Assembly: GCA_017451505.1 (NCBI GenBank)
Contig: JAFTOF010000002.1
Span: 1,042-65,041, forward strand
Source of the DNA: Clostridia bacterium
GTDB taxonomy: Bacteria > Bacillota > Clostridia > UMGS1883
Reading direction: 5' to 3'
Length of the DNA: 64,000 nucleotides
In this document: positions 8,696 through 63,105 of the stretch, in pieces
Layout of the letters: every line of letters begins with the position of its first letter
Numbering within the stretch: position 1 is the stretch's first letter
The notes under the pieces: model-generated
Database searches by the model: none
Seen by the model: the letters and a program-made list of their open reading frames with translations, nothing else
What the model was told of the DNA's origin: nothing
Program-made: the position numbers and the translations under genes

Positions 8696-9817
8696 TTATT
8701 TAATAATTTTTCCGCCTGAGCCGCTTATTACAAAAACATAATCTTTATCATCAAAAAGCACTATTTTCTTCGCTCCCGATTCACTCATTACACGTTTTTC
8801 TATATCAAGCTCTTTGTCTGCAATATAAATCTCTTTTCCAAAAGCTATAGCAACGGCATTGTCGCCTACACTTATACCGTCGGCAATGTAGTCAAAGGTT
8901 TTTTTACCAATTTCTCTGCCCAGACGGTTCACCGTAACCACCTCTGTAGAATTCCCCTTTACACCGCTTCCCGACTGTTCAAAGGCAAGTACCATAATAT
9001 CGGGATTCGTCACGTCTGCCTTGAGCAGAGTCTTATTTTTATATGAATAGGACCATTTTTTGCTTCCGTCGGAATTATAGTATTCAAGGCTATGACTTCC
9101 CACGGCGGTAAGGGTATTATTCATATTATAATCTACGCTGAAATAAACCTTTGCCTCGCTGCTATGCCTTTCAATTTTCTCTGCCTGTGTAATATCAAGA
9201 ATTAAAATTTCACCCAGAAGTTTCTGGTTGCCCGCCGTTGCCAGAGAAATTGCAATAGCATTATTCTTTGAGTTAATATCACCGTCGAGGAATTGGCTTT
9301 TACTTACATCCCACTTGAAAATGGGTTCTCCCGACTTATTATATACCATACATTCGCAGTTATATCCTTCCTTTTCTGTGGCAAGGAAGAGATAGCCGTT
9401 ACTATTCACTTTTGCTCTTATAATTTTGTTTTTGGTTTTTATGCTGTAACATTCCTTTATGCGTTTGTACACAGTTACATCCATGGAATTTTTATTATAA
9501 CAAACAGCATAATCCCCCTCTGTAAAAAGCACAGGCTCGGACAGGGCTATTGAAATTTTCTCACCGTCTCCGTCTTCGTCAAATATACGCATGGAGGTTG
9601 TTGACACATGCACTACTTCCCCATCTAATCTGGCGGCATCACCTACGAAGAATCCGCTGCTTCCCTCCTGTGTTTCGGTCACAACGCCTTCACTTTCGTC
9701 GGTGCCATTGAATAGGTCAAGGTCTCTGTTAAGGTAATAAATTATCACAAGCATTGAAAGAATAACAATTATTGCAGCTGAATTTTTTAAAATATGTTTA
9801 ATTTTTTCCTTATTCAT
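8696..9817 (-). CDS. Membrane-anchored hypothetical protein (beta-rich, possibly DUF5711-like)
   Basis: 373 aa with an N-terminal TM anchor (AAIIVILSMLVIIYYL) and a beta-strand-rich remainder. Its start overlaps the truA stop, suggesting translational coupling. Confidence 0.6.
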   Translation of the reverse strand: MNKEKIKHILKNSAAIIVILSMLVIIYYLNRDLDLFNGTDESEGVVTETQEGSSGFFVGDAARLDGEVVHVSTTSMRIFDEDGDGEKISIALSEPVLFTEGDYAVCYNKNSMDVTVYKRIKECYSIKTKNKIIRAKVNSNGYLFLATEKEGYNCECMVYNKSGEPIFKWDVSKSQFLDGDINSKNNAIAISLATAGNQKLLGEILILDITQAEKIERHSSEAKVYFSVDYNMNNTLTAVGSHSLEYYNSDGSKKWSYSYKNKTLLKADVTNPDIMVLAFEQSGSGVKGNSTEVVTVNRLGREIGKKTFDYIADGISVGDNAVAIAFGKEIYIADKELDIEKRVMSESGAKKIVLFDDKDYVFVISGSGGKIIK

Positions 9818-10544
9818 AATTCACCTCTACCAAAGAAAGCCCTTGAGGAGGAGCAGTTATCCCCATTAATCTTCTGTCTTTCTTTTCTATAAGCTCGGAA
9901 ATTTCGCTCTCGGAAAGCTTGCCGTTACCCACATAAACAAGTGTGCCTACGATTATCCGCACCATATTGTATAAAAATCCGTCGGCGGCGGCACGCACGG
10001 TTATTAAATCGCCATCTTTTTTGAGCGAAAGCTCAGTAACCGTTCTGACTGTGGACTTAACCACACTCCCTGCTGCACAAAAAGAAGCAAAGTCGTGTTT
10101 TCCCAAGATAAGCTTTGCCGCGTTTTGCATTTTTTCAAAATCAAGTGTTACCGGATAATGCCACGCAAAATTTCTGAGCAGCGGATCCATAAAAGGAGCG
10201 TTAAGGATTTTGTATTCATATGCTTTTGTAACTGTTTCAAATCGGGCGTTAAAGCCCTCATGCATTATCTCGCACTTATAGGCACGAATATCAGGCGGAA
10301 GCATGGTATTAAGAACAAACGGAATCTTATCGCACGGGATTGTGGTTTCTCCTGTAAAGCTGCACACATATATCTTTGCGTGAACTCCCGCATCTGTTCT
10401 GCTGCATCCTGTAACAGTAGTTTCCTTTTTAAAAACCTCGGATAAAATACCCTCTAAAACCTCCTGCACAGTGATGCCGTTTTTCTGACGCTGCCATCCG
10501 TGATAATTTGTGCCGTCATATGCCATTGTAAGTTTATAAGTCAT
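9810..10544 (-). CDS. truA: tRNA pseudouridine(38-40) synthase
   Basis: MTYKLTMAYDGTNYHGWQRQ...CSRTDAGVHA. I chose the internal ATG at 10544, which overlaps the ecfT stop (ATAATG). The ORF-track start at 10598 lies inside ecfT. Confidence 0.9.
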   Translation of the reverse strand: MTYKLTMAYDGTNYHGWQRQKNGITVQEVLEGILSEVFKKETTVTGCSRTDAGVHAKIYVCSFTGETTIPCDKIPFVLNTMLPPDIRAYKCEIMHEGFNARFETVTKAYEYKILNAPFMDPLLRNFAWHYPVTLDFEKMQNAAKLILGKHDFASFCAAGSVVKSTVRTVTELSLKKDGDLITVRAAADGFLYNMVRIIVGTLVYVGNGKLSESEISELIEKKDRRLMGITAPPQGLSLVEVNYE

Positions 10545-11347
10545 TATGATACAACCTCTATCAAAACAAGTGTACACACCATTATGATGCCGAAACAAAG
10601 TGCTGACAAATCATTTATGCCAAATTCAAGCTTCCTGTAGGAAGTTCGGGGTGCATCGCTGTTATAGCACCTGCATTCCATTGCTACCGCCAAATCGTCC
10701 GCACGCCTGAAAGCACTGACAAACAGCGGAACCAAAATTGGAATCATAGCCTTAATACGCTTAATAGGATTTCCATTCTCAAAATCTGCACCCCTTGAGG
10801 TTTGTGCCTTAATTATTTTATCCGTTTCATCAAGAAGTGTGGGAATGAATCGCAGTGCAATGCTTATCATCATTACAAAAACAGAAACGGGAACTCCGAT
10901 TTTCTTAAGCGGTGACAGAAGTGATTCCATTCCGCTTGTTAAAACAGTGGGCGTGGTGCTTAATGTAAGAAGTGATGTTCCCATTATAAGAAGCGTTATC
11001 CTCACCGCCATTTTTATAGCAAGCCATAAGCCCCCCTCTGTAATTGAAAAAATGCCTTTTTCAAAAATCACTTTTCCCTCATCAACCAAAAACAAATTAA
11101 GAAATGCCGTAAATATCACAAGAAAAAGTATTGGCTTTAATCCTCTTAATATATATTTAAGCGGAATATGTGAAATTTTTATAACCATAGCGGTAAAAGC
11201 GATTATTACCCCGTATGAGTATATGCTGTCAACCACAAAAAGCATAACCATATAAAGGAGCGTCCACAAAATTTTTGTTCTGGGATCCATTTTATGAACT
11301 ACTGAATCAGTGCTGTAGTACTGACCGATTGTAATATCACGAATCAT
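10544..11347 (-). CDS. ecfT: Energy-coupling factor transporter transmembrane protein
   Basis: Polytopic membrane protein in the conserved ecfA1-ecfA2-ecfT-truA order. Start MIRDITIGQYY at 11347 overlaps the ecfA2 stop (ATGA). Confidence 0.85.
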   Translation of the reverse strand: MIRDITIGQYYSTDSVVHKMDPRTKILWTLLYMVMLFVVDSIYSYGVIIAFTAMVIKISHIPLKYILRGLKPILFLVIFTAFLNLFLVDEGKVIFEKGIFSITEGGLWLAIKMAVRITLLIMGTSLLTLSTTPTVLTSGMESLLSPLKKIGVPVSVFVMMISIALRFIPTLLDETDKIIKAQTSRGADFENGNPIKRIKAMIPILVPLFVSAFRRADDLAVAMECRCYNSDAPRTSYRKLEFGINDLSALCFGIIMVCTLVLIEVVS

Positions 11348-12195
11348 AATGTCGCCCCCAATCGTTGACATATAACATCAGAGAGCTTTGTTATATCAAA
11401 AATGTTTTCTGGAATATTCATTCCGCCGTCGTTTAAAAGCTTAATAACTTTTGTTATTTCAGGAATCTCAAGACCGCATTTTTTGAGTAAGGCTGCATCG
11501 GAAAATATATTTGAAACCGTGTCATCCTTATACTTTTCGCCATTATTAAGTACGATTATCCTTTCGGCATTTTGTGCAAGGTCCTCCATACTATGCGAGA
11601 TAAGAATAATGGTTGTATTCTGCTCTTTTCTTATTTTGTGAAGCTCGCCCCAGAGTCTCTCCCTGCCCGACGGGTCAAGCCCTGCAGCAGGCTCGTCAAG
11701 TATCAAAACTTCAGGCTCCGTGGCAAGCACGCCTGCGATTGCAACACGCCTCTTTTGACCGCCTGACAGCTCAAAAGGAGATTTTTCAAAAAGCTCCTCC
11801 TTAAGATGTGCAAGGGCGGCACTGCGGCGTACACATTTATCCGTTTCTTCCTCGCTAAGACCTTTGTTTTTAGGTCCGAAAGCTATATCGCGGTATACAG
11901 TTTCTTCAAAAAGCTGATGCTCGGGATACTGAAATACTATCCCTACCTTGCTTCTCAAAACACGTGCGGCAGCCTTATAATCACTGTACTCTATGCCGTC
12001 AACTAAAATAGTTCCGCCACACGGCTTAATAAGCCCTGCAAGTATTTGGGCAACGGTTGTTTTTCCGCTTCCCGTATGGCCTGCAACGCCGATAAATTCA
12101 CCCTTATTAATTTTTAAATTAATATCCTTTACGGCAGCCGCATTATCGCCGATGCTGTCGTTGTAAGAATATGAAACATTCTTAAATTCAATCAT
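11344..12195 (-). CDS. ecfA2: ECF transporter ATPase component 2
   Basis: 283 aa with Walker A GHTGSGKTT, signature LSGGQKRRV and Walker B LILDEP. Confidence 0.9.
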   Translation of the reverse strand: MIEFKNVSYSYNDSIGDNAAAVKDINLKINKGEFIGVAGHTGSGKTTVAQILAGLIKPCGGTILVDGIEYSDYKAAARVLRSKVGIVFQYPEHQLFEETVYRDIAFGPKNKGLSEEETDKCVRRSAALAHLKEELFEKSPFELSGGQKRRVAIAGVLATEPEVLILDEPAAGLDPSGRERLWGELHKIRKEQNTTIILISHSMEDLAQNAERIIVLNNGEKYKDDTVSNIFSDAALLKKCGLEIPEITKVIKLLNDGGMNIPENIFDITKLSDVICQRLGATL

Positions 12196-12210
12196 ACTAA
12201 AATTCCTTTG

Positions 12211-12494
12211 TAGTTAGCGTGATACTAGATATCCAAACCTCGTTTTTTACTTTCTATTTTCCGCCGCTACTGCGTTGAAAGCCTTACCCATACGTCAGTA
12301 TGGGTTGCATTTTCGCCTTGTATCGACGAAAAATAGTTTGTAAAAAATTCTGCGAACCTGAAACGGATGAAATTTTGTGCAGATTTTGGTGCGGAGTTCG
12401 CAGACAGGCTGTCGCCTTTCAAGAACGACAAGCTAAAAGATGCCGAAATTTCACCGTTTCAGGCGGGTTCGGATATCTACTGTCACGCTGAGTA
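12211..12494. mobile_element. MITE-like 284-bp element with 29-bp imperfect terminal inverted repeats
   Basis: Left end is TAGTTAGCGTGATACTAGATATCCAAACC. The reverse complement of the right end is TACTCAGCGTGACAGTAGATATCCGAACC (24/29 identical). It has no credible ORF and sits in the normally tight ecfA1-ecfA2 junction. Both ends carry TA. Confidence 0.6.
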
Positions 12495-13311
12495 TCTCCT
12501 CGGCACATTCCTTGGGTGTAAGAGTCTCTTTTTCAATATTTATTCCCTTTTTTCTAAGTGCATGTACAAGAGCCGTAGAGTCCGGAACGGAAAGTCCTAA
12601 ATCACGAAGTTTTTCTTCCTCTCTGAACACCTCTCTCGGAGGTGCATCAAACCTGACCTTTCCCTTGTCCAAAACAATTACCCGGTCAGCCTTTGCTGCC
12701 TCGTCCATATAATGAGTGATAAGGACAATCGTTATGTTGTTCTCTCTATTTAAGCTCAGGATTGTATCCATAACTTCCCTACGCCCCTGCGGGTCAAGCA
12801 TGGCGGTTGGTTCGTCAAGAACAATGCACCGTGGCTGCATTGCCAGAATTCCCGCAATAGCTACACGCTGCTTCTGTCCGCCCGATAAAAGATGCGGTGC
12901 ACGTTTCCTATGCTCGTACATATTTACGGCTTTAAGTGCTGCCTCAACCCTTCTGTGCATTTCTTCCCTGTCTATGGCAAGGTTTTCAAGTCCGAATGCT
13001 ACGTCCTCCTCCACAATGGTAGCTACAATCTGGTTGTCGGGATTCTGGAATACCATACCTGCACTTTTTCTCAGCTCGTAGAGCTTTTTTTCATCAGAGG
13101 TATCTATTCCGCAGACAGTTATACTTCCTCCGCATGGCAAGAGTATAGCATTTATATGCTTTGCAAATGTACTCTTTCCGCTTCCGTTATGACCTATAAT
13201 TGCAGTAAAACTGCCCTCTTTTATATCTATATTTAATCCGTCAAGAACTACCTTCTCATCATTTTCTCTTTTATATGAAAAGGAAAGCTCCTTTGTTTCA
13301 ATAATATTCAT
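12451..13311 (-). CDS. ecfA1: ECF transporter ATPase component 1
   Basis: 286 aa with Walker [10 protein letters not shown], signature LSGGQKQRV and Walker B IVLDEP. The last roughly 13 codons and the stop lie inside the right inverted repeat of the 12211-12494 element. Confidence 0.9.
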
Positions 13312-13326
13312 AATACCAGTCCAATA

Positions 13327-14190
13327 CTATTTTTCCCATCTTGCAGTTGCTCCGCAGGGAAGCACCATTGATGAGCTTGTAATTTTAAGTCCGATTTCAC
13401 TTGCCTCAATTTTGCCCTCAGGCAGACACATCTGCATGAGGTTGGACATCACGGTGGGAGAAAGCCCTGTGGTATAGGAATTGATTATAAAGAATAAAGG
13501 ATTATCGCTTAAAAGAAGTGCACATCTGTGTACAAAATGGCATATGGAATCCTCTATTTTCCACACTTCTCCCCCTGGCCCTCTGCCGTAAGAGGGTGGG
13601 TCCATTAAAATTGCGTCGTATTTATTTCCACGCCTTATTTCTCTTTCCACAAACTTCATACAGTCATCTACAAGATACCTTATAGGTGCATCGGCAAGAG
13701 AGCTTGAACGTGCATTTTCCTTAGCCCACTGAACCATACCCTTTGAAGCATCAACATGGGTAACCGCTGCCCCTGCCTTTGCACAGGCTACGGTAGCACC
13801 GCCCGTATAGGCAAAGAGGTTTAAAACCTTTGCCCCCTTGCGTCCTTTTATTGTATCCATCATATAATCCCAGTTTACTGCCTGTTCGGGGAAAAGTCCA
13901 GTATGCTTAAAGCCCATGGGTTTAATGTTAAAGGTTAAATTCTTATAGCTGACTGTCCACTGGTCGGGAATACTTTTTTTGTATTCCCACTTTCCGCCGC
14001 CGCTTGAAGAACGGTGATAATGTGCATCTGCCGTTTTCCATACGCCCTTGTTTGCCTTACTGTCCCAGATCACCTGAGGGTCAGGTCTGCACAATATTAT
14101 GTCACCCCAGCGTTCAAGCTTTTCACCGCTTGCGGTATCTATACATTCATAATCTTTCCAATCTTCTGCAACCCACATAGTTTTCTCCAT
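13327..14190 (-). CDS. Class I SAM-dependent methyltransferase (RlmI/RlmK-like core)
   Basis: 287 aa with LNLFAYTGGATVACA (motif I) and ILMDPPSYGRG (DPP motif). Confidence 0.75.
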   Translation of the reverse strand: MEKTMWVAEDWKDYECIDTASGEKLERWGDIILCRPDPQVIWDSKANKGVWKTADAHYHRSSSGGGKWEYKKSIPDQWTVSYKNLTFNIKPMGFKHTGLFPEQAVNWDYMMDTIKGRKGAKVLNLFAYTGGATVACAKAGAAVTHVDASKGMVQWAKENARSSSLADAPIRYLVDDCMKFVEREIRRGNKYDAILMDPPSYGRGPGGEVWKIEDSICHFVHRCALLLSDNPLFFIINSYTTGLSPTVMSNLMQMCLPEGKIEASEIGLKITSSSMVLPCGATARWEK

Positions 14191-14199
14191 TCAAATTCA

Positions 14200-15087
14200 T
14201 CAATCTTCGTAATCTTCAAAATTATATTTATCGGAAAATACAAATCCCACAAGGTCTGGACCGCCGTGACAAGCGATAACCGAGCCGAGCCTTAGCTCTA
14301 TAGTTTTCAGATTCTCAAAGGCAGCTGTAAGCTCGCCCTTTAATTCCTCATCTTTTTCCTTGTATCCAGAGTGAACGGCAAATACGCTCTTGCCCGTCAA
14401 ATCAAAGCCATCTGTCTTGGCTTTTTCGACAAGCTTCTTTAAAAGCTTCTTACTTCCGCGAAGCTTTCCGTCCTGAACTACAAGACCATCCTTGATTGCA
14501 AGAACAGGCTTAATATCAAGCACATTGGCAATCATGAATGTAGCCGCATTTATTCTTCCGCCACGCTTCAGGTAAGTCATATCGCCTACAAGGAAGTATG
14601 CATGCATGGTTGTATACACGTCTTCAAGATAGCTTACAATTTCCTCTTTTGACTTTCCTTCACTGAGCATATGTGCGGCGTGAACCACACCGCCGCCGTA
14701 AAGACATGAATATCCGTGGGAATCAACAACTATAATCTCTCCCCCGCGTTCATCCATCACTTCCTGAGCGGAAAGCAGTGCATTTTGATACATGCCGCTT
14801 CCCGCGGAAGAAATTGTAACAACAATCAAAGTGTCAAAGCCGTTGTCATATTCCTCATTAAAAGCATCGGCATATCTTATGGGAGTAATCTGCGTAGTCT
14901 TGGGAGTCTCACTTTCAGAATCAGACAATCTTGCATAAAACTCATCCTTAGACATATCTATACCTTCCTTGTAGTATGTCTCTCCGTCAAAGGAAAACAT
15001 AATGGGAAGCATTCTGATGCCCAATTTTTCAGCCTGTGCAGTTGTAATATCGCTTCCGCTGTCGGTTAAAATTTTAATCTTGCTCAT
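14200..15087 (-). CDS. DegV family fatty-acid-binding protein
   Basis: Start MSKIKILTDSGSDI is preceded by AAGGAGAGG. DegV-type fold motifs run throughout. The ORF-track start at 15108 is less likely. Confidence 0.85.
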   Translation of the reverse strand: MSKIKILTDSGSDITTAQAEKLGIRMLPIMFSFDGETYYKEGIDMSKDEFYARLSDSESETPKTTQITPIRYADAFNEEYDNGFDTLIVVTISSAGSGMYQNALLSAQEVMDERGGEIIVVDSHGYSCLYGGGVVHAAHMLSEGKSKEEIVSYLEDVYTTMHAYFLVGDMTYLKRGGRINAATFMIANVLDIKPVLAIKDGLVVQDGKLRGSKKLLKKLVEKAKTDGFDLTGKSVFAVHSGYKEKDEELKGELTAAFENLKTIELRLGSVIACHGGPDLVGFVFSDKYNFEDYED

Positions 15088-17353
15088 TATCAAATTCCTC
15101 TCCTTCATTTATAAACTGGGTAGGTGTGATTTCTTCTTTAATTTTATCTGAATTATCTATTGTAACCCCTCTTGTTGCCATTTCCTGCTGTGCCCTTAAA
15201 AGAGAAGCGTAAATGCCATTCTTTTCAAGAAGCTCTTTATGAGTTCCCGTTTCGGCAATTTTTCCGTTGTCCAGCACGAACAGTCTGTCCGCATTTTTAA
15301 GTGTGGATAATCGGTGGGCAATGGCAAATACGGTTTTTCCTTTGGTAACTTTTTTTAACGCATCCTGAATCTTTAACTCCGTATCGGAATCTACAGATGC
15401 GGTTGCTTCGTCCAAAATAAGAATTTTGGGGTTTGCCACAATGGCACGTGCTATTGAGATACGCTGGCGTTCCCCTCCCGAGAGCTTATACCCTTTTTCT
15501 CCCACATAAGTATTATATCCGTCGGGAAGCTCCATTATGAAATCATGTGCGTTTGCCTTCTTTGCGGCAATAATACAATCCTCGAGGGTAGCTTTCGGGG
15601 CGGCATATTTAAGGTTATCGAGGATACTTCCGCTGAAAAGATAGCTTTCCTGCAAAACCACTCCCAGAAGATTCTTGTAGTCCTGCTGATTATATTCCGA
15701 AATGTCGCTTCCGTCAAGCAAAATTTTCCCTCTGTCGGGGCTGTAAAGACGCATAATAAGATTAATCATCGTGCTTTTCCCTGCTCCGCTGTGACCGACA
15801 AGCCCTATCATTTCGCCTTTTTTTACGGATTCTTCTATATTTTTCAGTACACGCCTGTAGCTCTTGTATCCAAAAGAAACGTTATCAAAGGTAAAGCTGC
15901 CCTCTGCCTTATCTGCCGAGGCTTTTATATCACCATCGAGTTGTTCTTCTTCCTCGAGAACCTCAAAAACCCTTTGCGAGCTGACAAGAGCCATAGTAAA
16001 ATGTCTGGGAAGCATACTAAACCACTCAAGCCTGCTGTAGAGGTATCCCCCGTAGGTGGAAAACTGAACAAGCTCGCCCACACTCATGCTGCCGCTGAGA
16101 ACCTTGTTTCCGCCAAAAAGAAGTACAAGATATGCTCCGAAACCCATTATAAACTTAATTATGGGGAATATGGTATAAACATATTTCTCATTTGCACAGG
16201 TAATATTTCTTACATCGCCCGCCGTTTTCTTAAAGCGGTTGATTTCATCATCTTCCCTGCCGAAAACCTTGACAACCTTGATTCCGTTTAACACTTCGGT
16301 AAGGCGATTTGTCATCTTATCCATTTTTCTCCACTGCTTATGATACCTGCTTCGTATATTAAGGCGTATCTTTCCGATAAGATACAATGCAATGGGCATA
16401 GGGAGAAAAATCAAAAGAGACATTTTCGCATCAAGATACACGGTTATAACTGCTATTGCAATAAAGAGGCATATTTCATTCACTGCCATTATGGCAATGT
16501 CCTGAATAAAAGTCTGTATACGCTGTGTATCATTATTGATTCTCTGCATCAAATCGCCCGTCTTTTTTTCTTCAATGTAGCTAAGGGGCATTTTCTGAAG
16601 CTTTTCGTATATATGATTTCTTAAATCCTTAACCAGAAGATTACTTGCCTTTGACGATATAATACTGCGGATAACAGATACAACCATACTGATAACGGTG
16701 GTAAGAAGCATTAGTCCCACTATGATGAGAAGTGTGGTTATGGAAGCATTTTTTATATTCAGCACATCATTTATCAGATGCTTTGAAAGAATAGGCGTAA
16801 CTACCGTCACAATGCTTGTTATCCAAAACAAAAGTAAAAGGGTTATATATAAACCTTTATACGGTTTTGCTATTTTGAAAAGCTTTTTAAAAACAGAAAA
16901 TTTATCACTGCAGTGAGTGCATACGGTGGTATTTTTAATATATGCTCTGCCGCATTTTGGACACACTCTGTCCTCGGCAAAGGCTTTTTCATTAATGACA
17001 GGCTCCAATCCCTTTGCAAGGTCATTAATGATTTCGCACACTGACGTAAATTCCTCAATATGCTTCATAGAAAAACGAACAAGCTGTTTTCTCCCTTTTA
17101 CCGTGAAAGCTTCCAATATTCCTCCGCCTGTATATTCTCCAAGGCAAACCTTTTCAATGTTTTCAATATTTTCCGCAAGAACAAGCCTGCCGTTTTCCAC
17201 CACACAAAGCCTGTGTCTGCTTACGGCAAAAACGCCTTCTGTATATGTGCCGTCTTCCGATACATCATAAAGAAGTGACAGGAGCATTTCTTCCCCATTA
17301 AGTGCAACGGACACAATATCGCTGTATTTAGTTATTGATGCCTTTGCACTCAT
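15074..17353 (-). CDS. ABC exporter (fused TMD-NBD) with N-terminal PH-like domain and zinc ribbon
   Basis: Walker A GHSGAGKST, signature LSGGERQRI and Walker B LILDEA, with six TM helices. The N-terminal roughly 170 aa include CPKCGRAY...CTHCSDK. Start taken as MSAKA (17353) after GAAAGGAG. The ORF-track extension translates a repeat element. Confidence 0.85.
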   Translation of the reverse strand: MSAKASITKYSDIVSVALNGEEMLLSLLYDVSEDGTYTEGVFAVSRHRLCVVENGRLVLAENIENIEKVCLGEYTGGGILEAFTVKGRKQLVRFSMKHIEEFTSVCEIINDLAKGLEPVINEKAFAEDRVCPKCGRAYIKNTTVCTHCSDKFSVFKKLFKIAKPYKGLYITLLLLFWITSIVTVVTPILSKHLINDVLNIKNASITTLLIIVGLMLLTTVISMVVSVIRSIISSKASNLLVKDLRNHIYEKLQKMPLSYIEEKKTGDLMQRINNDTQRIQTFIQDIAIMAVNEICLFIAIAVITVYLDAKMSLLIFLPMPIALYLIGKIRLNIRSRYHKQWRKMDKMTNRLTEVLNGIKVVKVFGREDDEINRFKKTAGDVRNITCANEKYVYTIFPIIKFIMGFGAYLVLLFGGNKVLSGSMSVGELVQFSTYGGYLYSRLEWFSMLPRHFTMALVSSQRVFEVLEEEEQLDGDIKASADKAEGSFTFDNVSFGYKSYRRVLKNIEESVKKGEMIGLVGHSGAGKSTMINLIMRLYSPDRGKILLDGSDISEYNQQDYKNLLGVVLQESYLFSGSILDNLKYAAPKATLEDCIIAAKKANAHDFIMELPDGYNTYVGEKGYKLSGGERQRISIARAIVANPKILILDEATASVDSDTELKIQDALKKVTKGKTVFAIAHRLSTLKNADRLFVLDNGKIAETGTHKELLEKNGIYASLLRAQQEMATRGVTIDNSDKIKEEITPTQFINEGEEFDNEQD

Positions 17354-61083: not shown

Positions 61084-62172
61084 ATGAAAAAAATAATAGC
61101 AATTTTAACAAGCTTGGTTTTATTAGCCGTTTCTGCATCGGCAGAGACTACCAAAGCTACTACAAATCAATTTGAATTATCGCTTAGCAAGGAAACGCTC
61201 AGTTTTTTGTCTGCTCATAATGTTGATTTAGAATCACTGTCTGTTAATGCACAAACAAGAGCTTCGTTCTCTGAAAATTGTTTGTCTATCTCTGAATATT
61301 ATGAAAGTGCAATTAAATCTATCCAAAAAGAGGCAGAAGTGTATGGTTTTACTTCTAAGCAAATAGAAAACTACATAAATGCTACGCTATCGTCCACCCC
61401 AAAAATATTAAGAAGCAAAGCAGATGCCGAAAAGGAAGCCTTGGAAGATAAAGCTTCACCCCTCGATTATTATGCTGATAATAAACCTAAGGAAGATGGA
61501 ATTGGTTGGGAGGTAAAATCCTTACCTCAATTTTCCCACGCAACTACATTTGTGACATTACCAACTGTACAGAATAAAACCAGCAATGCTGCCCCTTATT
61601 TATTTTATACCGTTGCAAATCCTAATGAAAGCTGGGGAATAGACTTAGGCGTAGGATATGAATATGGAGATACCGGACTGAAATGGAGAGGCTTCCATAA
61701 AACAACCGGGAATAAATTGCAGTATGACAAAAACGCTGAAATAATGTCAAACAATCTATACTTTAAAGCATTTCTTTATCCTGAAGACCACGAGTATTAT
61801 GGATATTTAAATTTCACTGTGTGCGATGGCGATGATATAGATACTATTTATTTTAATTATCTATACTATGTGGCTGACCATAATATATATCCTATCAATG
61901 GCACTTTTATAAAACAAGTTACGCTGTGTGATAATCTGAAACAATATAATTGTGGAATGAAAATATTAAACGCTCAATTTTCGCAGTCATATTTATATTC
62001 AACTCCTAATAACACTAACAGCTTAATGCTTCCGTCGAACTGTGAGGACGGGGAAACTGCGAACGAACCAAACAGATGCGGCAAGTTTGGAACAAATAGC
62101 AATAATGCGGAACAAGTAACACAAAACTCCAGTACAAAGTGGCACACTGAAAACATATCAATATCATTCTAA
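61084..62172 (+). CDS. Secreted hypothetical protein
   Basis: 362 aa with a signal peptide (LLAVSASAET) and RBS AAGGAG. No domain recognised. Confidence 0.65.
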   Translation: MKKIIAILTSLVLLAVSASAETTKATTNQFELSLSKETLSFLSAHNVDLESLSVNAQTRASFSENCLSISEYYESAIKSIQKEAEVYGFTSKQIENYINATLSSTPKILRSKADAEKEALEDKASPLDYYADNKPKEDGIGWEVKSLPQFSHATTFVTLPTVQNKTSNAAPYLFYTVANPNESWGIDLGVGYEYGDTGLKWRGFHKTTGNKLQYDKNAEIMSNNLYFKAFLYPEDHEYYGYLNFTVCDGDDIDTIYFNYLYYVADHNIYPINGTFIKQVTLCDNLKQYNCGMKILNAQFSQSYLYSTPNNTNSLMLPSNCEDGETANEPNRCGKFGTNSNNAEQVTQNSSTKWHTENISISF

Positions 62173-62208: not shown

Positions 62209-63105
62209 ATGAAATATGCAAAAATAATTTTAGGAATAATTTCTATGGTTCTTTGTTTGCAGATACAAGGTTTAGCATCAGATGTCTATGTCACAATTCC
62301 GGAATTTGATATTACCCTTAACGGGGAGATTCTTGATAGCGAAAACAGTGAATATCCTGCGATTATATACAAGAATATTACCTATATTCCTCTTTCATGG
62401 AACATGAGTCAATTTATGGGGATTGTAACAGAGTTTGAGCCTTACGGATACAATGCTGTCCGCCCTGACAGATTTTATGTAGGAAACAGTGCAACTCGTT
62501 CAGAAACCCTTGTGCTTGATATTGCAACAGACAAAAATTGTCGAGAAAAGGAATATTCCGCCACTATTGCAGATTATCAAATTTATATAGGTAATGGTGT
62601 CAGTGTTAAAAATTCTATTAAGGAGCATCCTTTTCTGAATTTCCGTGGGGTAACATATCTTCCGCTTACTTGGGAATATGCCTATGATGTGTTTGACTGG
62701 GACTATAGCTTTGATAATGAAAAAGGACTTATTATAAATACGGTTGATGCTGTTCGTCCGGAGTGGAATTACTGGCAATTATGGAACACCTCTCCACACG
62801 GAGAATATGATAAATATTTGTTCGGACGCCGTTGGTATATAGGTTATCCTGATGACACTTATGGCGAAACAGATGACTTTGTGATAAAACGGCAGGGAGA
62901 GGAAGAAAAACGTTTTAACATTAAAGAAAAGCTTTTCGAACTCCATATATCATATCTCGCAACCCAGCCCCTTAATGAGTTTTCATGGATAGCAAAAGAA
63001 CCAACCTTTGACGGAAGGTATCTTGAAATCCACTGCCGGAACGGCAATATTCCTATAATTTTAACAATTGATATGGATAGCGGAGAAATTGTAAATGTCA
63101 AGTAA
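62209..63105 (+). CDS. Secreted hypothetical protein, paralogue 1 (stalk-like repeats)
   Basis: 298 aa with a signal peptide. Contains two I.LNG......YP......ITY.PL-type segments. Clear similarity to the next ORF (EHPFLNFRGVTYLPLTWEY...DW.YSFDNEKGL versus EFPFLMFRGIKYLPLTYKF...DWSITFDAEKGL). Confidence 0.65.
   Translation: MKYAKIILGIISMVLCLQIQGLASDVYVTIPEFDITLNGEILDSENSEYPAIIYKNITYIPLSWNMSQFMGIVTEFEPYGYNAVRPDRFYVGNSATRSETLVLDIATDKNCREKEYSATIADYQIYIGNGVSVKNSIKEHPFLNFRGVTYLPLTWEYAYDVFDWDYSFDNEKGLIINTVDAVRPEWNYWQLWNTSPHGEYDKYLFGRRWYIGYPDDTYGETDDFVIKRQGEEEKRFNIKEKLFELHISYLATQPLNEFSWIAKEPTFDGRYLEIHCRNGNIPIILTIDMDSGEIVNVK

Follow-up and report, generated by a model that had tools for sequence, protein, structure and literature searches.

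Why are ecfA1 and ecfA2, two ABC-ATPase genes of an ecf operon for vitamin transport, separated by 255 nt, and why does ecfA1 end inside a long inverted repeat? This question is raised by a 64,000-nt stretch of contig JAFTOF010000002.1 from a Clostridia bacterium, which we refer to as the window (the whole stretch of DNA that was analysed). A preliminary description, made from the sequence alone, had noted the gap, which we find at positions 12196-12450, and had attributed it to the insertion of an element resembling a miniature inverted-repeat transposable element (MITE). Our analysis supports this proposal with corrected coordinates. It is established that a mobile-element-like insertion supplies the C-terminus and the stop codon of EcfA1 and has displaced the native end of the gene. 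Furthermore, we consider it likely that the inserted DNA is a non-autonomous transposon with terminal inverted repeats, that is, a MITE, of an undescribed low-copy family, and that it was inserted a single time, followed by recombination of its flanks.

The ecf operon is encoded on the minus strand of the window. The two genes and the parts of their junction that derive from the insertion and from the native gene end are:

12451-13311, minus strand: ecfA1, encoding 286 amino acids, with a chimeric 3′ end.
11344-12195, minus strand: ecfA2, encoding 283 amino acids, which starts 255 nt after the ecfA1 stop codon instead of overlapping ecfA1.
12451-12489, minus strand: element-encoded C-terminus of EcfA1, 12 residues plus TGA, a tail found only in the proteins P0001-P0010.
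12192-12215, minus strand: fossil of the native ecfA1 3′ end, NYKGILV*, reading AAC TAC AAA GGA ATT TTA GTA TGA.

The last 12 codons of ecfA1 and its TGA stop codon come from the repeat arm at 12451-12489. The preliminary description had likewise assigned the tail and the stop codon to the right repeat, but the inserted share amounts to the last 39 nt of the open reading frame (38 of them in the 272-bp core) and not to 44. The native 3′ end, which had been thought to be replaced, is displaced and persists as a fossil of 21 nt (12195-12215), followed by a TGA that overlaps the ecfA2 start codon (12193-12195) as ATGA. The Shine-Dalgarno sequence of ecfA2, AAAGGAA (12203-12209), is part of this fossil. 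If positions 12216-12489 are removed in silico, …GAG ATA CTC is joined to AAC TAC AAA GGA ATT TTA GTA TGA, and the gene ends in …EEIL-NYKGILV* with an ATGA overlap. After removal of these 274 nt, the length of the protein (281 amino acids), its reading frame and the ATGA overlap are all equal to those of alleles that lack the insertion. The alignment of EcfA1 to the solved structure 4huq_B stops at residue 265, so that the new tail lies beyond it, and this region varies in length and sequence among homologues. The new tail is probably tolerated rather than functional.

Such alleles without the insertion, hereafter called empty in contrast to the filled allele of the window, are found in close relatives. 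The set of the best 120 EcfA1 homologues falls into the following groups by their C-termini:

P0001-P0010: 91-100% identity to the window protein, 286 amino acids, tail …EEIL-SVTVD[I/V]RTRLKR.
P0011-15 and P0017: 91-94% identity, 281 amino acids, tail …EEIL-[K/R]YKGNLV.
All more distant homologues: lower identity, 277-294 amino acids, native EIL[K/R/N]xxK-type tails.

The element-encoded tail is therefore present in 10 of these 120 proteins, all of them at least 91% identical to the window protein, and the remaining 110 end without it. The preliminary description had named conservation of the junction sequence in distant relatives as a sign of a dedicated structured RNA; among these 120 homologues, the element is absent from the ecfA1-ecfA2 junction of distant relatives. 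All the empty loci that we fetched (L011, L012, L027 and L029-31) encode a 281-amino-acid EcfA1 and show an intact ATGA overlap of ecfA1 and ecfA2. Within the clade, the filled allele is the majority, with 10 of 17 protein clusters. The best pair of filled and empty loci for comparison, L015 and L027, shows 81 differences over about 5050 positions (1.6% divergence). At the insertion site itself, the two are distinguished by the 274-nt insertion and by two adjacent nucleotides (-1 and +3), and the next mismatches are found at -60 and +151.

A third allele, P0016 (283 amino acids; L013 about 1000-1030 and L014 about 998-1028), reads ATACTT-AGTATCACGCT-AACTAC and has the frameshifted tail SITLTTKEI. 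It keeps 11 nt of the element, AGTATCACGCT, and is, judged by its sequence, an allele from which the element was deleted between the TAG of the left junction and the TAG of the right repeat, which are 3-nt direct repeats at the base of the stem. The homologue P0018 (86% identity, 290 amino acids) has a further unusual C-terminal tail, …EELLRLRGVDQSYTKEIKYD, which may be due to another insertion or to a rearrangement at the ecfA1-ecfA2 junction.

The exact limits of the inserted element follow from a comparison with independent copies at other loci:

12217-12488, minus strand: core of the MITE-like element, 272 bp, GCGTGA…TCACGC, with limits set by homology to the paralogs in L003, L005, L006 and L008.
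12215-12216, unstranded: TA flank on the ecfA2 side, a putative copy of the target dinucleotide.
12489-12490, unstranded: flanking dinucleotide on the ecfA1 side, TG on the plus strand here and TA in L007, L013 and L028.
12217-12239, unstranded: terminal inverted repeat, arm proximal to ecfA2, identified by repeat search.
12466-12488, unstranded: terminal inverted repeat, arm proximal to ecfA1, without variation in the six copies first aligned.

The 29-nt inverted repeat at 12211-12239 and 12466-12494 is present as first described, with 24 of 29 positions (83%) complementary, and the only matches of its right-arm 24-mer in the 64-kb window are the two arms themselves (up to three mismatches allowed; shuffle expectation 0.00). 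But in the independent copies, when aligned together with their flanks, homology begins and ends at 12216/12217 and 12488/12489. Hence the outer 4-5 nt of each 29-nt arm are flanking sequence, and the element does not extend over 12211-12494, as was first assumed, but over 12217-12488 (272 bp). Its own inverted repeats measure 23-24 bp, with complementarity at 20 of 23 positions in the window and at 25 of 27 terminal bases (93%) in L003. The three positions of the ecfA2-proximal arm that do not form Watson-Crick pairs with the other arm are 12223 and 12225, both of which are repaired in some orthologous copies, and 12235, a G-U wobble on the mRNA-sense strand. The end sequence to be used for matching the termini of insertion sequences (IS) is TAGCGTGACAGTAGATATCC.

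The ends of the element adjoin TA. This dinucleotide is found next to the ecfA2-side end in every copy examined at the ecfA1-ecfA2 junction, and it adjoins the GCGTGA…TCACGC block in all copies with a visible flank, with the exception of two ends: the ecfA1 side carries CA in three ecf lineages, and the far flank of the L003 copy is TG on the plus strand of L003 (CA in the orientation of the window plus strand). We regard 12489-12490 as a putative second copy of the target TA that was altered by a synonymous mutation (Leu CTT to CTC). The block inserted relative to empty alleles, 12216-12489, adds 274 nt net (272 + 2), and the palindrome including its TA ends, TA-GCGTGA…TCACGC-TA, spans 276 nt. 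Duplication of a TA target is a property of IS630/Tc1-mariner elements and of Correia elements. By analogy to these, a net insertion of 274 nt and a palindrome of 276 nt would fit a 272-bp element with a duplicated TA. A TA duplication, which had also been suggested in the preliminary description, is thus plausible, but the TAs cited there (12211-12 and 12493-94) do not adjoin the element; the dinucleotides that do so are the TA at 12215-16 and the TG at 12489-90.

Copies at other loci were searched in one genome per GTDB species with the exact 19-mer core of the repeat. Matches were obtained at the orthologous locus of a Clostridia metagenome-assembled genome (L007) and in four contigs (L003, L005, L006 and L008) of another such genome, T1900044646; the remaining four or five matches (L002, L004, L009 and L010) were from unrelated phyla and were dismissed as chance. 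L003 carries a full copy with 89% identity between recG and an unrelated gene. The contigs L005, L006 and L008 stop within the repeat, as would be expected where a repeat interrupts an assembly. T1900044646 therefore has copies in at least three loci (downstream of recG, at the start of L005 and at the end of L008), with a possible fourth at the start of L008, in addition to one degenerate remnant in L005. The further copies thus comprise one full copy and at least two partial ones plus the remnant, all in this second genome and at unrelated loci whose flanks have only TA in common.

Some of these copies show features of their own. Downstream of recG, the full copy (L003 5930-6260) occupies the loop of a terminator-like hairpin, CGCCTTCGG…CCGAAGCG with a T-run behind it. 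In its right flank, GGGATATCCGAA, 10 nt of the inverted repeat of the element recur; the copy may have entered an older remnant, or the element may prefer hairpins. The partial copy at L005 1-217 is enlarged by 54 nt inserted near the apex of arm B (see below). The degenerate remnant at L005 5766-5835, roughly 70 nt of inverted-repeat-like sequences, is located directly after a terminator.

Beyond these genomes, the exact 24-mer of the inverted repeat gave no match in JGI metagenomes and IMG/VR, and a conserved internal 24-mer gave none in JGI metagenomes. Searches with blastn against PLSDB and INPHARED, performed both with the whole element and with the inverted repeat alone, returned only chance matches. 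A nhmmer profile built from four copies detected no diverged copies in the 347 kb of sequence collected. In the nearest relatives of the RecG protein encoded at the L003 locus (87% identity), other genes follow downstream and the element is missing.

Does the element encode a protein? As had been proposed, it contains no credible open reading frame: none is conserved between copies, and the longest ones (63-70 amino acids) are interrupted or lack a start codon in L003. A six-frame concatenate of its open frames found no homologue in the protein collection. What the element does encode is a strong fold. The 296-nt segment is predicted to fold with -113.7 kcal/mol in mRNA sense (z = -9.4 relative to dinucleotide shuffles) and with -126.6 kcal/mol in antisense (z = -10.4). 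The predicted structure is a Y-shaped three-way junction, in which an outer stem formed by the termini closes two long imperfect hairpins:

12243-12347, minus strand: arm A, an internal imperfect palindrome, from repeats and predicted folds, with one compensatory change (C-G to A-U) in L003.
12286-12305, minus strand, within arm A: apex hairpin ACCCATAC-GTCA-GTATGGGT, identified by repeat search.
12349-12463, minus strand: arm B, an internal imperfect palindrome, from repeats and predicted folds, with two compensatory pairs in L003 and L008.

Both pairs of internal repeats listed in the preliminary description, CCTGAAACGG/CCGTTTCAGG and ACCCATAC/GTATGGGT, are present. A common origin of arms A and B as diverged duplicates was rejected, since their alignment scores no better than shuffles. 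In nine sequences, 97.7% of the cells of the 102-pair Y structure are standard pairs, and pairing falls to about 40% if the partners are slid. Changes on both sides of a pair were observed at four pairs, compared to 0.7 ± 0.8 in shuffles (1/500). The fold is thus kept in paralogs with a divergence of 8-15%. The two strands fold similarly well, with -112 and -120 kcal/mol in the window and -106 and -109 kcal/mol in L003.

With regard to expression, no terminator-like site and no internal promoter were detected on the sense strand of the element, and the ecfA2 Shine-Dalgarno sequence is unpaired in a predicted 391-nt fold. We infer read-through transcription of the element and independent initiation at ecfA2. 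By analogy to Correia elements, the 23-bp outer stem is a plausible substrate of RNase III. The only terminator-like hairpin is read on the plus strand (12286-12305), antisense to the operon; it is formed by the apex of arm A with TGCATTTTCG behind it and is scored as similar to an intrinsic terminator. Had the element been inserted the other way round, it might have been polar on ecfA2.

The conservation of the element raises a problem of its own. We compared five filled lineages, namely the window, L007, L015, L017/L020 and L028. These lineages differ by 9-12% over ecfA1 plus ecfA2 and by 19-41% at four-fold degenerate sites, while no more than 1-7 differences in 274 positions separate their elements (97.4-99.6% identical). 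At the very edges of the element, identity rises from about 0.8-0.9 to about 1.0. In the EcfA1 distance matrix, filled alleles are interleaved with empty ones, the filled P0003 being only 2-3 residues away from the empty P0013-15, and the flanks are mosaic among alleles. At the same time, the flanking TA is changed to CA in three filled lineages, a derived state common to them, and all filled alleles carry an Asn-type fossil codon (AAC or AAT) that is absent from every empty allele sampled. Based on this common CA and fossil codon, we propose that all filled alleles go back to a single insertion event.

A second insert in the same operon shows a comparable pattern. It is unrelated in sequence, 175 nt long and located at the stop/start overlap of the next two genes:

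about 10544-11347, minus strand: ecfT, as given in the gene table.
about 9810-10547, minus strand: truA, as given in the gene table.

The 175-nt insert is present in L012 (12489-12663) as well as in L017 and L020-L023 (12763-12937) and absent from the window (junction at about 10590-10600), L011 and L015. It supplies the last codon and the stop codon of ecfT, so that the protein ends in …EVIT* instead of …EVIVQ*, and it opens with a mini-palindrome, TA-ACGTGA-AAAA-TCACGT-TA, that resembles the termini of the MITE described here. Its copies show 3 differences in 175 positions (about 98% identity) across backgrounds with a four-fold divergence of 28-29% in truA. The two inserts are 1.7 kb apart, and all four combinations of presence and absence are found. 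Because the flanks are mosaic, all four combinations occur and the 175-nt insert is equally conserved, we favour the interpretation that the insertion is a young allele whose flanks were shuffled by homologous recombination. Selection on a functional RNA may contribute as well.

Several observations weigh against this history of a MITE that inserted once and was then spread by recombination. Compared to four-fold degenerate sites, the divergence of the element is 15- to 70-fold lower in five lineages, which could also be explained by selection on the element. The filled alleles have no flank haplotype in common, and the divergence between them reaches 12.7% already in the first 25 nt upstream; a haplotype around the element as left by a recent sweep was looked for and not seen, and the missing tract is awkward for a simple recent sweep. 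None of the sampled empty alleles has TA at the insertion point, which reads CTGAAG (CTG-AAG) or CTCAGA (CTC-AGA). A TA duplication therefore requires a hypothetical, unsampled ancestor with CTT-AAY (Leu-Asn); judged by the homologues, such an ancestor is plausible, as codon 275 varies between K, R and N and EILN…-type tails occur in relatives. The copy number is low: in the GTDB representative with the filled site, only one copy whose termini are intact was seen. Finally, the 64-kb window, about 280 kb of related loci, the GTDB representatives, JGI, IMG/VR, PLSDB and INPHARED yielded neither an autonomous element nor a transposase whose termini match, in searches that relied on exact matches of the 19- or 24-nt terminus and that a partner with diverged ends would escape. 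Neither the 10 window open reading frames scanned against Pfam nor the gene tables of related loci contain a transposase. Since these searches did not return the autonomous IS partner suggested in the preliminary description, the element resembles IS630/mariner elements by analogy only.

One candidate from the related loci, a 328-amino-acid open reading frame on a 1.4-kb insertion in L020 and L021, was rejected as a transposase: it is AT-rich, resembles a membrane protein and is unrelated to the MITE. This insertion (L020 16589-18000, also in L021) adjoins spoVT, is flanked by a duplicated 5′ part of this gene and is absent from L017; its reading frame has no Pfam hit on record.

Instead of a young MITE allele on recombined flanks, the insert could be a domesticated intercistronic structured RNA of the ECF operon or a guided, site-specific mobile RNA or DNA element. 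We give this pair of alternatives a small chance. If true, the insert would be an unusually clear case of a transposon-derived RNA under rRNA-like constraint in an mRNA, with at most 2.6% divergence compared to 19-41% at neutral sites.

The first of these is a MITE that was exapted as a functional structured RNA of the ecf transcript, where it might serve intercistronic processing or stability or set the ratio at which EcfA1 and EcfA2 are expressed, and that is maintained by strong purifying selection. Such a role would account for the near-identity of the element between lineages with its abrupt edges, for the four compensatory pairs among paralogs and for the predominance of the filled allele in the clade. 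It would also be in line with the transitions at paired positions in orthologous copies, five out of six of which lead to G-U pairs on the mRNA-sense strand, although this strand bias is not significant (p about 0.1). But loops and bulges cannot be kept invariant by a structural constraint alone, and the element evolves over its entire 274 nt at about 1-4% of the neutral rate, which is tighter than the flanking coding sequence. The equal over-conservation of the unrelated 175-nt insert at ecfT-truA argues for a population-genetic cause. Moreover, empty and deletion alleles persist in the clade, some of them near-isogenic with filled ones, and the element is thus dispensable; the similar folding of both strands is what a DNA palindrome would show; and a cmscan of positions 9000-16000 on both strands against Rfam, with its riboswitches, ribozymes, introns and large non-coding RNAs (among them OLE, GOLLD, ROOL and HEARO), gave no match at E ≤ 1. 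Taken together, we judge exaptation to be rather improbable as the main explanation.

Repeated, independent entry of a site-specific mobile element at the same ecfA1 position, guided by RNA or DNA structure as in IS110/IS1111-type or homing-type elements, would also lead to interleaved filled and empty alleles on the EcfA1 tree, to filled alleles without a common flank haplotype and to an element that looks far younger than its flanks, and the single orientation of all filled copies agrees with it. We nevertheless consider this very doubtful. The derived CA of three filled lineages together with the Asn-type fossil codon of all of them points to one event, the paralogous copies are inserted into unrelated sequences with TA alone in common, and long terminal inverted repeats are typical of DDE cut-and-paste elements. 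Apart from the GATATCCGAA stretch in the right flank of L003, which repeats part of the inverted repeat, inspection by eye, with no systematic search, revealed no internal segment that matches the flanks. A self-splicing group I or group II intron, or another intervening sequence acting at the RNA level, is highly improbable: the predicted RNA is highly structured and removal of the 274 nt restores the native tail, frame and ATGA overlap, but such restoration is expected from any clean insertion, Rfam has no intron or ribozyme match at E ≤ 1, the three possible boundary registers end in U, C or A and never in the omega-G of group I introns, no register has the GUGYG start or AY end of group II introns, for which 274 nt are far too small, and the paralogs lie in intergenic DNA adjoining TA and have terminal inverted repeats.

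Our preferred interpretation of a single MITE insertion followed by recombination of the flanks suggests the following history. In an ecfA1 allele with the probable reading CTT-AAY, a transposase acting in trans, possibly of the IS630/Tc1-mariner type, would have inserted the element a single time, at a TA located seven codons upstream of the end of the gene. The insertion severed the native tail [K/R/N]YKG[N/I]LV and put 12 residues and a stop codon from the inverted repeat of the element in its place, the ATGA coupling of ecfA1 and ecfA2 was broken, and a very stably folding gap of 255 nt now lies inside the ecf operon. The element would be co-transcribed with the operon, in an orientation that has no terminator on the sense strand, and ecfA2 would be translated from the Shine-Dalgarno sequence that survived in the displaced tail. 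RNase III could cut the transcript at the 23-bp outer stem, as reported for Correia elements. The filled allele would then have become the commoner one in the clade, and homologous recombination of the flanks would have placed it on many diverged backgrounds. In this process, no diverged versions of the insert would be available for import, and gene conversion from an empty donor would have to stop at the heterology. Recombination of the flanks with an old, diverged pool of alleles would explain why the insert is about 99% identical and the flanks about 90%. One lineage would have lost the element again by deletion between the TAG…TAG microrepeats at the base of the stem.

How does this element compare to known ones? 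Generic prokaryotic MITEs are shorter than 500 bp, have terminal inverted repeats of about 4-30 bp and, in young copies, flanking direct repeats, are non-coding, give transcripts with stable stem-loops and occur in several copies (PMC10969869). The present element agrees with this definition by its size below 500 bp, its terminal inverted repeats, the lack of a conserved open reading frame, its dispersed copies, the presence/absence polymorphism with an empty site and its stable fold. Like MITEs derived from IS630/Tc1-mariner elements (cyanobacterial Nezha and Chunjie types), it is non-coding, is shorter than 500 bp and has terminal inverted repeats and adjacent TA on both sides; unlike for these, no IS630-family partner with matching ends was found, so that the grouping is one of analogy only.

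Correia elements (CREE/NEMIS) of Neisseria are likewise small and non-autonomous, with inverted repeats of roughly 25 bp that adjoin TA, a long-stem fold and co-transcription with their neighbours, which we presume for the present element. Their transcripts are cut by RNase III at the inverted repeats (PMC10969869). The two differ in that they have no sequence similarity and belong to different phyla (Neisseria versus Clostridia), that Correia elements exceed 100 copies per genome compared to one to a few seen here, and that they contain promoters and a site for integration host factor (IHF), none of which was detected in the present element.

Palindromic mobile elements that add translated residues to protein-encoding genes are known as Rickettsia palindromic elements and intragenic ERIC/BOX sequences (PMC10969869). 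The element described here also contributes translated residues to its host protein. But Rickettsia palindromic elements are inserted in frame and read through as internal segments, whereas the present element truncates the reading frame, adds a 12-residue C-terminus with a stop codon and separates two translationally coupled genes. Among Firmicutes, the pneumococcal RUP, BOX and SPRITE sequences are comparable as small Gram-positive repeats with strongly structured RNA that are often found at gene ends or terminators and are sometimes nested, for which the L003 copy within a terminator-like hairpin and the L005 remnant offer a parallel. They are unrelated in sequence, the copy number is much lower here, and the present element is a three-way junction of two unrelated palindromes closed by inverted repeats.

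As for the remainder of the window, eight of the 10 open reading frames scanned against Pfam belong to housekeeping or DUF families. The other two, which have no Pfam match at E ≤ 1e-5, are neighbours on the plus strand (61084-62172 and 62209-63105; 362 and 298 amino acids).

Our current understanding of such elements is not overturned by these findings: this is a rare addition to a well-known class, essentially an ordinary insertion with unusually complete documentation. The occurrence of empty, filled and secondarily deleted states in near-isogenic backgrounds makes it a clean natural case, which shows base by base how a MITE rewrites a C-terminus, donates a stop codon and uncouples two ABC-ATPase genes while the essential operon that contains them survives. 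A further result is an undescribed family of MITEs in uncultured gut-type Clostridia, in which such elements have been little studied. The pattern of conservation would be a marker of very frequent homologous recombination across a species complex of roughly 90% average nucleotide identity, or it may be a hint of exaptation.

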